Below, one piece after another: positions 1,012 to 3,320 of a DNA stretch of 9,750 nucleotides. The stretch's first letter is position 1, and each line of letters starts with the position of its first letter. The stretch lies in the IMG/VR virus record IMGVR_UViG_2526164633_000033. The stretch is one strand, 5' to 3'. The notes beneath the pieces are model-generated. The model had not been told where the DNA came from and made no database searches. It worked only from the letters and a program-made list of their open reading frames with translations. The position numbers and the translations under genes were made by a program. This DNA is from a virus (lineage: Duplodnaviria; Heunggongvirae; Uroviricota; Caudoviricetes).

Positions 1012-1050
1012 GTCTTATAGTCTGATCACTGTTTCAAGTCGGTGAGGGCA

Positions 1051-1093
1051 CCAAAAAGAAAACCCGCAGTTTTTACGCTGCGGGTTTGTTGTT
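1051..1093. terminator. Putative bidirectional rho-independent terminator, likely 3' end of the hok-like transcript
   Basis: Seen in sequence: a perfect 9-bp stem aacccgcag(1061-1069) / ctgcgggtt(1078-1086) with an 8-nt loop. It is flanked by ccaaaaagaa(1051-1060), U-rich on the - strand, and tgttgtt(1087-1093), U-rich on the + strand. Confidence 0.45.
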
Positions 1094-1173
1094 CATGTCT
1101 GTGAGATAGGGTGCCTTATCGACCTTACCCTGGCAACCGATTGACGGGGGATTGCTCCCCCGTCGCGGTTTCC

Positions 1174-1314
1174 TTACTGCTTACACTGTAAGAACGCCGC
1201 AAACTCCGCTCCCCAGAAGCTCATCCGTATTTCACACAGCGAACCGTGCAACATCCAGATGATGAGGATTGCCGTCACGCAGAACGTGATGGCCGTAAGC
1301 GATTTTTGCGACAT
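1174..1314 (-). CDS. hok: Hok/Gef-family type I toxin (HokA-like small membrane toxin), 46 aa
   Basis: Hand translation of the - strand gives MSQKSLTAITFCVTAILIIWMLHGSLCEIRMSFWGAEFAAFLQCKQ. It has one hydrophobic N-terminal helix, the SLCE(I/L) motif and the E-x-AAFL-x-CK tail with two conserved Cys, which I recall as typical of Hok/Gef toxins and closest to HokA. An AAGGAG Shine-Dalgarno (reverse complement of 1323-1328) lies 8 nt upstream of the ATG at 1314-1312. This gene is below the size cutoff of the supplied ORF track. Confidence 0.75.
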   Translation of the reverse strand: MSQKSLTAITFCVTAILIIWMLHGSLCEIRMSFWGAEFAAFLQCKQ

Positions 1315-1444
1315 AGCACTTGCTCCTTTTCCGGAGAGGCGCTAACCTTTCACTTGTCAAGGTAATGCGGTTAGGGCCTCGGTTAAACAGAGATGTTTTC
1401 CGGGGCCTTTCCACATCTGGCCTTCGGGTATTCCCTCCGACCAT
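1232..1444 (-). CDS. Possible mok-like overlapping reading frame (70 codons) that would couple translation to hok
   Basis: ORF track shows a 70-aa frame starting upstream of hok and ending inside it in a different frame. This matches the mok/hok arrangement of the plasmid R1 hok/sok locus as I remember it. No clear Shine-Dalgarno was found, so this is inference from architecture only. Confidence 0.3.
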   Translation of the reverse strand: MVGGNTRRPDVERPRKTSLFNRGPNRITLTSERLAPLRKRSKCYVAKIAYGHHVLRDGNPHHLDVARFAV

Positions 1445-1504
1445 CAGCCGAAAGGCACCCGCGCGTAATCTATCGCTTTTTTGTTAATCCGGCAATTCTG
1501 CCTG

Positions 1505-1765
1505 TTAGTTCTGAGGTAAAGGCAAACTCATCTGATTGTTTCCCCTGTGTGAAGCTGGCAGCTCATGCCACGGGATACCTTCTGAAGAGTGAACGCCGGA
1601 GGCGTGTTTTGATGTGAATTTATGGAAGGCTTCCAGTGTTGAGAAGCATACGCCGCATTCCAGGTTGTTACACTGGTAATACTTTTGCCGCACGGTGTTT
1701 GAATCATTTTCCGGACGACTGGTGCGGATTCGGGCAGATGCGCCACAAAGCGGACAACGGAACAT
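1505..1765 (-). CDS. ogr: Ogr/Delta-family zinc-finger late-gene transcription activator, 86 aa
   Basis: The translation begins MFRCPLCGASARIRTSR...YYQCNNLECGVCF, the C-x2-C...C-x4-C zinc-finger signature of P2 Ogr / 186 B / P4 Delta. A strong GGGAGG Shine-Dalgarno (reverse complement of 1771-1776) lies 5 nt upstream of the ATG at 1765-1763. The track ORF starts 20 codons further upstream (1825) but that start has no such site. The C-terminal 35 residues are divergent from the P2 Ogr I remember. Confidence 0.85.
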   Translation of the reverse strand: MFRCPLCGASARIRTSRPENDSNTVRQKYYQCNNLECGVCFSTLEAFHKFTSKHASGVHSSEGIPWHELPASHRGNNQMSLPLPQN

Positions 1766-1883: not shown

Positions 1884-3320
1884 ATGAGCACACATGAAAT
1901 AGCTAGCACACAAGCACAAGGGCAACTCGTATCAACAGATTTCAATCGATTCGAGCAATTTTTGGAGTCGCTTGGATTACCAAAAGAAAATGTTCTTGCT
2001 TCAACGATGGAGCGTCAGGTTGTCCAAACAAACTTTCCTCAGTTTGTGATGGCGTTACCAGAAGACGTTAAGCGTGACTCTAGATATTTGTCCAAATTTG
2101 CAGCAGCAAGTGCTATTGGTTTGTTTGATGCTGCCTTGAATTATGTCTGGAACGAAGTTGTACTTAACTTACGAAGAAAGACAGTTATTTATGGTTTGGA
2201 ACTTTTTTTTGATGCTGCCGTTGGTGGTAAACATAGAGATCTATTTAGTACTGAAAGTGACTTAAGTGGTATTAAAGATAAAGTTCTTCTTGATAATTGC
2301 GCTAAATTAGAATTGATCTCCGACTCAATTTATAAAAAACTCACCCATATTTTAATTATGCGCAATGATCTTGGTGCCAGTCATCCTAATGATGCGAAAA
2401 TCAATGCTTATGAACTGATGGGGTGGTTGCAAACATGTGTTCAAGAAGTTATCAATGACACACCTTCAGAGGCTGCACTGCAAGTTAAGGCTTTTGTTGA
2501 GAATCTGCGAAATCAAACTGAAGTCATCAGTAGCTCTAGTTTGCAGCATATGAAAAATGGGCTCAAACAGCTACACACAAGAAATTGTGATAATGTCCTT
2601 CAGACAATCTTCGGTATGTATATTGGTGCTGGTGCAAATAACATCCTTAAGAAAAATATATCTGAAATTGCTCCAACAGTTTGGGAATGTGCAGATAATA
2701 ATATTAAATATAAACTAGGTGTTGCGCTTGATGGTTATCGAACCAACTTGCACAATGATAAATTTTTAGCAGGTAACGAGTTTTTCGAATTTTGCTCTGG
2801 TAATAAATTTAAAACCCTTGAGGCTAGGGTTATTCTGCTTGATGAATATCTGGATGATTTAAGTTCTGCTCACAGCGGTTGGGATAATTTCTATAATGAA
2901 GTTCCTCATGCTAGGAAAATATTAAGTTACATTTCCAATGAATCGGATATTCCTAATGAACGTAAAGAAAAATTAATTCGTATAATTCTATCGTGTCGTA
3001 TTGGTAATGGTGTTTCTTATAACACTGGTGTTTCTCCTTTAGGCAAACCCATATACGATTCAATATTGAATATGCTGGGCGATGATAATATCGTTCAAGT
3101 TATCATTGCATTCTATAATCAAGAGATTTACCACTTATTATCTAACAAAAACTGTAGGAAGCATGCTGTGCAAATTCTAACGGATATAAGAACTAATGTT
3201 GTTAGTGATAAGCTCAAGCAAATCTTAGATTATCTGATTGTAAATGGTGATACTTTGGAAAAAACTATGAAAACCACTGAATTTAAAGCTCTAGCATCAA
3301 GTCATATAAAATTTAGTTAA
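1884..3320 (+). CDS. Hypothetical 478-aa protein in an AT-rich cargo island between D and ogr; N-terminal HEPN-like R-x6-H motif; candidate abortive-infection/defence protein
   Basis: Uninterrupted 479-codon ORF with ATG at 1884 and a GGGA ribosome-binding site at 1875-1878. Composition is visibly much more AT-rich than the flanking phage genes. It is transcribed convergently with D and divergently from ogr. Residues 160-167 read RNDLGASH (nt 2361-2384), which fits the HEPN Rx4-6H pattern. No other catalytic motif was recognised. Confidence 0.8.
   Translation: MSTHEIASTQAQGQLVSTDFNRFEQFLESLGLPKENVLASTMERQVVQTNFPQFVMALPEDVKRDSRYLSKFAAASAIGLFDAALNYVWNEVVLNLRRKTVIYGLELFFDAAVGGKHRDLFSTESDLSGIKDKVLLDNCAKLELISDSIYKKLTHILIMRNDLGASHPNDAKINAYELMGWLQTCVQEVINDTPSEAALQVKAFVENLRNQTEVISSSSLQHMKNGLKQLHTRNCDNVLQTIFGMYIGAGANNILKKNISEIAPTVWECADNNIKYKLGVALDGYRTNLHNDKFLAGNEFFEFCSGNKFKTLEARVILLDEYLDDLSSAHSGWDNFYNEVPHARKILSYISNESDIPNERKEKLIRIILSCRIGNGVSYNTGVSPLGKPIYDSILNMLGDDNIVQVIIAFYNQEIYHLLSNKNCRKHAVQILTDIRTNVVSDKLKQILDYLIVNGDTLEKTMKTTEFKALASSHIKFS

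Follow-up and report, generated by a model that had tools for sequence, protein, structure and literature searches.

A putative type I toxin-antitoxin cassette of the hok/sok family next to ogr at the end of a P2-like prophage

The window analyzed here is a stretch of 9,750 nucleotides from a tailed phage (Caudoviricetes; IMG/VR record IMGVR_UViG_2526164633_000033). On its minus strand it carries a short gene for a Hok-family toxin, which sits directly downstream of the late-gene activator ogr and in the same orientation, as a preliminary description based on the letters had placed it. The genes and features of the locus, listed by position in the window, are as follows.

881 to 902, no strand assigned: boundary of host and prophage (att core), within the hairpin of the acrB terminator; host tomB-acrB intergenic DNA to the left, phage DNA to the right
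1050 to 1087, minus strand: intrinsic terminator of the hok mRNA, AAACCCGCAG-CGTAAAAA-CTGCGGGTTT followed by TCTTTTT (terminator scan)
1109 to 1125, minus strand: fbi-like element, AGGUCGAUAAGGCACCC, pairing with the mRNA 5' end (minimum free energy, MFE, and consensus folds)
1142 to 1165, minus strand: 3'-UTR stem-loop just past the hok stop codon (helix 16; 100% paired, with four covarying pairs, in 60 sequences)
1174 to 1314, minus strand: hok-family toxin gene, 46 aa, product MSQKSLTAITFCVTAILIIWMLHGSLCEIRMSFWGAEFAAFLQCKQ (profile matches and RefSeq identity)
1323 to 1328, minus strand: hok Shine-Dalgarno sequence AAGGAG, 8 nt upstream of the ATG at 1314 (read from the sequence)
1232 to 1444, minus strand: "mok-like" frame of 70 codons, open in the window copy and not conserved
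1315 to 1460, minus strand: hok mRNA leader, with a tac-like 5' end GGGUGCCUUUCGGCU (1460 to 1446), a ucb-like segment GAAAGGCCCC (1411 to 1402) and a Shine-Dalgarno-like GAGG (1380 to 1377)
1320 to 1348, plus strand: predicted Sok-like promoter, -35 TTGCTC (1320 to 1325), 17-nt spacer, -10 TAACCT (1343 to 1348) (homology to sokW)
about 1355 to 1410, plus strand: predicted Sok-like RNA of about 56 nt starting at 1355/1356, with a single-stranded 5' tail of 14 to 18 nt and a hairpin (1373 to 1409) ending in UUU (homology to sokW)
1467 to 1495, minus strand: predicted hok promoter, -35 TTGCCG (1495 to 1490), 17-nt spacer, -10 TAGATT (1472 to 1467), +1 at G1460 (read from the sequence)
1505 to 1765, minus strand: ogr, P2-type late-gene activator, directly upstream of hok (Pfam Ogr_Delta, E 5e-14)

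The 46-aa peptide matches the Pfam family HOK_GEF (PF01848) over residues 7 to 44 with 29.9 bits against a gathering score of 22, matches PHROG 251 ("MokW-like host killing") over its full length (80.6 bits, E 1.3e-22) and is 100% identical to WP_000078916.1, a "Hok/Gef family protein" in RefSeq. The Hok/Gef-family gene that had been read from the sequence is thereby borne out, and its ribosome-binding site is present as well. A Hok survey lists M1, C16, T18, L30, C31, E32 and E41 as residues that more than 80% of 1,264 Hok peptides share (bioRxiv 10.1101/2025.08.07.668861); by our own comparison, all seven are found in the window peptide with an offset of -4 (M1, C12, T14, L26, C27, E28 and E37). 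The name "HokA-like" that the gene had received reflects a best match: HokA of E. coli K-12 is the top-scoring NCBIfam model, yet the score of 34 bits lies far below the equivalog cutoff of 89 (NF007290), and the peptide is therefore not a HokA orthologue. Judged by its sequence, it is instead a member of a separate 46-aa clade found in phages and plasmids (PHROG 251). Within an alignment of relatives, entropy at the third, first and second codon positions of hok is 0.62, 0.43 and 0.21, a pattern that indicates selection on the Hok protein.

The mRNA that would express this toxin can be delimited at both ends. We propose hok and Sok promoters on the basis of positional conservation and homology to sokW, and both are weak by consensus. 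For hok, the hexamers match the sigma-70 consensus at 8 of 12 positions, and a sigma-70 promoter scan of positions 800 to 1900 listed none; they nevertheless have counterparts equally far from GGGTGCC in copies whose upstream DNA is unrelated (TTGCCC/TAAATT in a Stx phage, TTGAAA/TAGAAT in a plasmid, TAGAAT in 933W). Since the Rfam model RF01794 (sok/hok leader) begins with GGGUGC, the same bases as those at 1460, G1460 is the likely 5' end. This model matches 1301 to 1460 of the minus strand over its full length, with 48.4 bits (E 1.6e-9), short of the 59 bits that its gathering score requires; at gathering thresholds Rfam returned nothing in the window, and RF01794 appeared solely in a permissive search. 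The Rfam comparison that the preliminary description had proposed thus gives a match with a low E value that falls short of the gathering level. Although named "sok", RF01794 (157 positions) covers the leader in the hok sense, between the 5' end of the mRNA and the start of hok, and not the antisense, so the strand of the match should not be taken as the Sok strand.

At the other end, a terminator had been placed about 90 nt past the hok stop codon, and we find there a G+C-rich hairpin (1087 to 1060) that starts 87 nt past it, in a scan that yielded five terminator-like sites where 1.5 were expected. The hairpin is conserved in P2-like copies and scores as a terminator on the plus strand too. 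Upstream, no terminator-like site lies on the minus strand between the ogr stop codon (1505 to 1507) and 1460, and the hok -35 box begins 10 nt past that stop codon; ogr transcripts probably read into hok and, as antisense, across the Sok promoter. Such read-through could couple Hok expression to late-gene activation.

Folding the predicted 409-nt transcript (1460 to about 1052) gives -177.8 kcal/mol with a z-score of -6.3. In the MFE fold its first 15 nt pair with 1125 to 1109 and close the whole molecule by 15 bp, which is the long-range 5'/3' pairing expected of a hok mRNA, and a consensus fold of nine homologues has the same closure. Relatives were collected by an exact 15-mer scan of IMG/VR, and 61 sequences were aligned; about 20 of the retrieved loci lack a hok ORF and are probably chance 15-mer matches. 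Over 60 distinct sequences the tac/fbi helix is 95.9% paired, and all changes on its 3' side are compatible with G-C, G-U or A-U pairs; its 5' side served as the search pattern, which places two-sided covariation in this helix beyond reach. Imposed on the same 60 sequences, the MFE structure of the window has 91.3% of cells paired, compared with 36 to 43% when the partners are slid, and a covariation score of 0.144, compared with 0.04 to 0.056. Covarying pairs occur in two elements, the 3'-UTR hairpin and a long-range helix between the Sok-target region and the 3' UTR. By analogy with the R1 model, the stem-loop at 1142 to 1165 is likely the protective 3' hairpin of the processed mRNA. MFE and consensus folds also place the hok Shine-Dalgarno sequence in a local hairpin with an upstream CUCC (helix 7, 93% paired).

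The 5' end has other partners as well. The consensus fold of the 61 sequences contains an alternative helix between tac and +50 to +59 (ucb), and in a fold of the 3'-truncated RNA tac pairs with +19 to +35, forming an immediately downstream hairpin. The tac/fbi arrangement and alternative tac partners have been described for plasmid R1 (PMC9841398), and in these models the alternative partners match those of the R1 switch.

The frame at 1232 to 1444, suggested earlier as a mok-like reading frame overlapping hok, does exist in the window, in the register that mok of R1 takes relative to hok; a role as mok and conservation of the frame find no such backing in the relatives. Neither the phages P88 and Chuche nor the Stx-phage and plasmid copies have a leader ORF that reads through the hok start, and 37 of 65 unique clade members lack such an ORF through the hok ATG, the others having inconsistent starts. 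No ribosome-binding site precedes the ATG at 1444, the tac helix includes it, and in relatives its frame is shifted or broken by a stop; we therefore rejected it as a mok start. The annotated 70-aa mokW of 933W has a GAGG followed 8 nt later by its ATG, whereas the homologous triplet in the window is ACC; the start codon nearest to that position, TTG at 1360 to 1358, is one codon downstream and in frame, and is not conserved. Variability by codon position follows the hok frame and not the mok frame; because hok varies most at third and least at second positions, the would-be mok wobble position is the least variable. A conserved short upstream ORF at +108 (GTG-NNN-GGT-TAG) was also considered and discarded, being absent in the Stx-phage copy and in the plasmid copy pW49-2-a. 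The GAGG box, the mok ribosome-binding site of R1, is still present, inside a hairpin.

From these alignments, mok is not a conserved feature of the 46-aa clade. A tentative further reading, from which we lean slightly away, is that the clade represents a mok-independent hok/sok variant that kept the tac/ucb/fbi RNA switch and GAGG and lost the leader ORF: Hok would be translated directly from AAGGAG after refolding, and Sok would act via RNA decay or structure and not by blocking mok. A clade without conserved mok offers a handy natural test of whether mok coupling is dispensable.

The antisense RNA is best placed by comparison with phage 933W, whose record gives sokW as a 71-nt RNA on the strand opposite hokW that starts 7 nt after a TAACCT box. 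A block in the window alignment, AGGTTAGCGCCTC, is invariant in 61 sequences and aligns with this box. The predicted Sok-like promoter was missed by the promoter scan because its consensus match is weak (6/12). In the hokW-sokW study, sokW counteracted HokW and a promoter-less sokW construct lost antitoxin activity (PMC8621323); the primers YO-421/422 in its Table 2 suggest to us that the promoter-less mutations fall in the TAACCT box. SokW consists of a 14-nt tail and a long hairpin ending in GGGGCUUUU. The predicted RNA in the window has the same layout of tail and hairpin (-24.1 kcal/mol, z -3.3), and it would span +49 to +106 of the leader, compared with +51 to +121 for SokW, which would leave about 27 nt between its pairing region and the hok ribosome-binding site further downstream. 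The interior of its hairpin covaries or is compensated among homologues, a conservation inseparable from constraints on the hok strand; one position forms a U·G pair on the Sok strand and a C·A mismatch on the hok strand. Leader positions +91 to +100, which face the Sok tail, are the most variable untranslated segment, as would be expected, in our interpretation, if this segment sets Sok/target specificity.

A Sok on the plus strand around 1400 to 1490 had been anticipated from canonical loci. This interval is the complement of the tac hairpin region; it folds with a z-score of -2.2 and no promoter was found for it, and we abandoned it as a Sok unit in favor of the better supported 1355 to 1410.

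The predicted module is reminiscent of hok/sok of plasmid R1 in most of its parts. Both have a small membrane toxin with the conserved Cys, Thr, Leu-Cys-Glu and Glu residues, an mRNA of about 400 nt with tac/fbi closure of its ends, alternative tac partners and a hairpin at the hok ribosome-binding site, an antisense gene inside the leader (both the gene and its promoter being predicted here) whose -35 box overlies the spacer between the hok Shine-Dalgarno and ATG, and a terminal stem-loop followed by a terminator. The differences are that the window peptide has 46 aa and the R1 toxin 52, that the module is phage-borne and not plasmid-borne, that it has no mok start at the homologous position and falls below the Rfam gathering threshold, and that the mok leader ORF, needed for hok translation in R1, is not conserved in the 46-aa clade. 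Like the window module, hokW/mokW/sokW of the Stx phages 933W and Sp5 is prophage-borne, and it has been validated (PMC8621323). Shared blocks are the hok -10 box (TAGAAT there, TAGATT here), the +1 GGGTGC and AGGTTAGC, the Sok -10 box TAACCT as read on the hok strand. The toxins themselves are more distant: HokW of 933W has 51 aa and shares 31% identity over 35 aa with the window toxin.

Closer relatives are common. We find the module in 1,555 of 5,426 complete E. coli genomes (29%), where the annotation among the copies listed is Hok/Gef. Phages P88, Chuche, P884B11 and 500465-2 encode the same peptide or one with one or two substitutions ("MokW-like host killing", PHROG 251) at the same place after ogr, and such copies have 94 to 98% DNA identity with the window, with no difference of substance. 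The records of WP_000078916.1 and of the phage copies annotate the CDS only, with no Sok RNA or mRNA elements. A Stx-phage version with 81% DNA identity to the window module adjoins lom, and plasmid versions (IncI1 and others) have 84 to 87% identity; the clade thus recurs with different flanks in P2-like phages, Stx phages and IncI1/IncF plasmids.

We consider it very probable that the module is a type I toxin-antitoxin cassette of the hok/sok family and that a P2-like (Xuanwuvirus-type) prophage carries it as accessory cargo, in the stretch from ogr to the attachment site. The weak promoter at the end of ogr would start an mRNA of about 409 nt at G1460, which would end at the terminator (1087 to 1050). 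In this RNA the tac-like 5' end would pair with the fbi-like element (1125 to 1109), the Sok-target region with the 3' UTR, and the hok ribosome-binding site would be held in its local hairpin. If the R1 and hokW paradigms apply, the closed full-length mRNA would be stable and untranslated; slow 3' trimming would remove fbi, and the 5' end would refold onto +19 to +35 or +50 to +59, exposing the Sok target and permitting translation. A short, unstable Sok from about 1355 to 1410 on the plus strand would bind the leader at +49 to +106, blocking expression and triggering decay, presumably by RNase III acting on the Sok/mRNA duplex as in R1 and hokW-sokW. Once Sok synthesis stops, upon loss or induction of the prophage, the 46-aa Hok would be made and inserted into the inner membrane, and the cell would be killed or lysed. 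By analogy, the module most likely serves to addict the cell to the prophage, to assist lysis when the prophage is induced, or to do both. In hokW-sokW, Sok disappears on induction, and Hok advances lysis and doubles phage release (PMC8621323). This locus is the best precedent for the biological role, prophage addiction being the classical alternative.

In P2, attP follows directly after ogr. On this ground the preliminary description had presented the module, which lies some 150 to 580 bp from the prophage end, as either phage cargo or the first host gene at the junction. The first of these holds, and we regard a host origin as very nearly excluded. Host homology, comprising tomB and the tomB-acrB spacer, spans 1 to 902 and is found in 5,389 genomes, while the match to ogr-hok blocks elsewhere starts at 881. 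When the window is aligned with an unoccupied tomB-acrB site and with a lysogen of the ihfA site, the crossover falls within AAAAAGGCCGC...GCGGCCTT, the terminator hairpin, and the unoccupied tomB-acrB site has no hok. Other strains have the ogr-hok pair next to ihfA, to the glyW-cysT-leuZ tRNA cluster or to serS, so that the block occupies at least four chromosomal sites, and it is also found in packaged phage genomes: the sequenced P2-like phages P88 and Chuche carry the hok module and flanking phage genes in the same arrangement, and the gene order in Chuche is ogr, hok, int. Given the junction, the recurrence of the pair at ihfA, leuZ and serS and its presence in P88 and Chuche, these comparisons make the module phage cargo and not a host gene.

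Even as phage cargo, the cassette could have decayed into a non-functional remnant, as several hok loci on the E. coli K-12 chromosome have, with an ORF and RNA motifs that persist only through recent descent. Most relatives have lost the mok frame or show it inconsistently, and degenerate copies occur elsewhere, such as an E. albertii plasmid copy with a stop at codon 2 and the SE11 copy with a mismatch in the fbi element. We nevertheless think decay unlikely: neither here nor in the inducible or isolated phages P88 and Chuche is there damage to the ORF, its ribosome-binding site, either promoter box or any helix, compensatory changes preserve the helices, the codon-position entropies point to selection on Hok, and P2-like phages, Stx phages and plasmids all have the module, amid different flanks. 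Another reading accepts the cassette and gives it abortive-infection defense of the lysogen as its main role, Sok being depleted when an invader halts host transcription. The hokW-sokW paper cites a report that R1 hok/sok lowers T4 plating (PMC8621323), and the neighboring slot between ogr and gpD holds variable low-GC cargo typical of defense islands. However, hok/Sok gave no protection against T4 in a 2026 re-test (PMC13047441), a section heading of the Hok survey states that hok is not enriched near defense systems (10.1101/2025.08.07.668861), and the 46-aa peptide has no PADLOC match; a primarily defensive role therefore seems to us about as improbable as decay.

The window module is an already catalogued hok/sok-family cassette, with a peptide named in RefSeq and PHROGs; enrichment of Hok in prophages has been reported earlier, and a prophage hok/sok locus, hokW-sokW, has already been characterized (PMC8621323). 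As far as sequence comparison can tell, its sole unconventional trait is that it belongs to a clade without conserved mok. Its importance is modest and lies mainly in correct annotation: the module is now firmly assigned to the phage and not to the host, and coordinates are available for RNA parts that were unannotated, namely both termini of the hok mRNA, its fbi element and the predicted Sok-like RNA with its promoter.

Several further observations concern the surroundings. At 881 to 902 the prophage is integrated in the transcription-terminator hairpin of acrB, between tomB and acrB. This junction occurs in none of the 5,426 complete E. coli genomes, in which no single match spans 380 to 1900, and in the lysogens that we examined the same phage type is integrated elsewhere, among other places in the ihfA terminator, the hairpin of which matches the phage copy exactly. 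Because the junction is unseen in these genomes and other lysogens use other sites, acrB-terminator integration looks, by sequence, like the use of a rare secondary attachment site with an imperfect core. We presume that the A+T-rich segment between the att core and the hok terminator (903 to 1050) is the attP arm, in which Int and IHF would bind; within it, at 989 to 1010 on the plus strand, lies another terminator-like hairpin, AAGCCCGCTACATTGCGGGTTT, followed by TGTCTT.

On the other side of ogr, between it and tail gene D, an ORF of 478 aa lies on the opposite strand (1884 to 3320, plus). Its G+C content is 0.32 to 0.39, compared with about 0.52 in the hok-ogr region and 0.51 to 0.60 in the tail gene. 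Pfam, NCBIfam and PADLOC gave no significant match to this ORF, only weak sub-threshold ones, and it matches PHROG 27609, a family of unknown function, with E 2e-200. In the same slot, STEC1585 (1359 nt) and SE11 (1155 nt) have other hypothetical genes, and P88 and Chuche have none annotated; since its contents differ among these four, it looks like a variable cargo hotspot, possibly for defense genes.

The 46-aa hok clade also appears in other settings. A member with 75% identity (MPQKTIIV...; locus L010, NZ_CP124742.1, 120716 to 121152) adjoins the type B L31 ribosomal protein gene; the record is a 212-kb "plasmid" of EDL933 whose content looks chromosomal. Two IMG/VR contigs (L032, 4318 to 5392; L112, 5545 to 6355) each carry two tandem copies of the clade, 455 to 720 bp apart, and these tandem copies differ in their leader (Sok-target) sequences.
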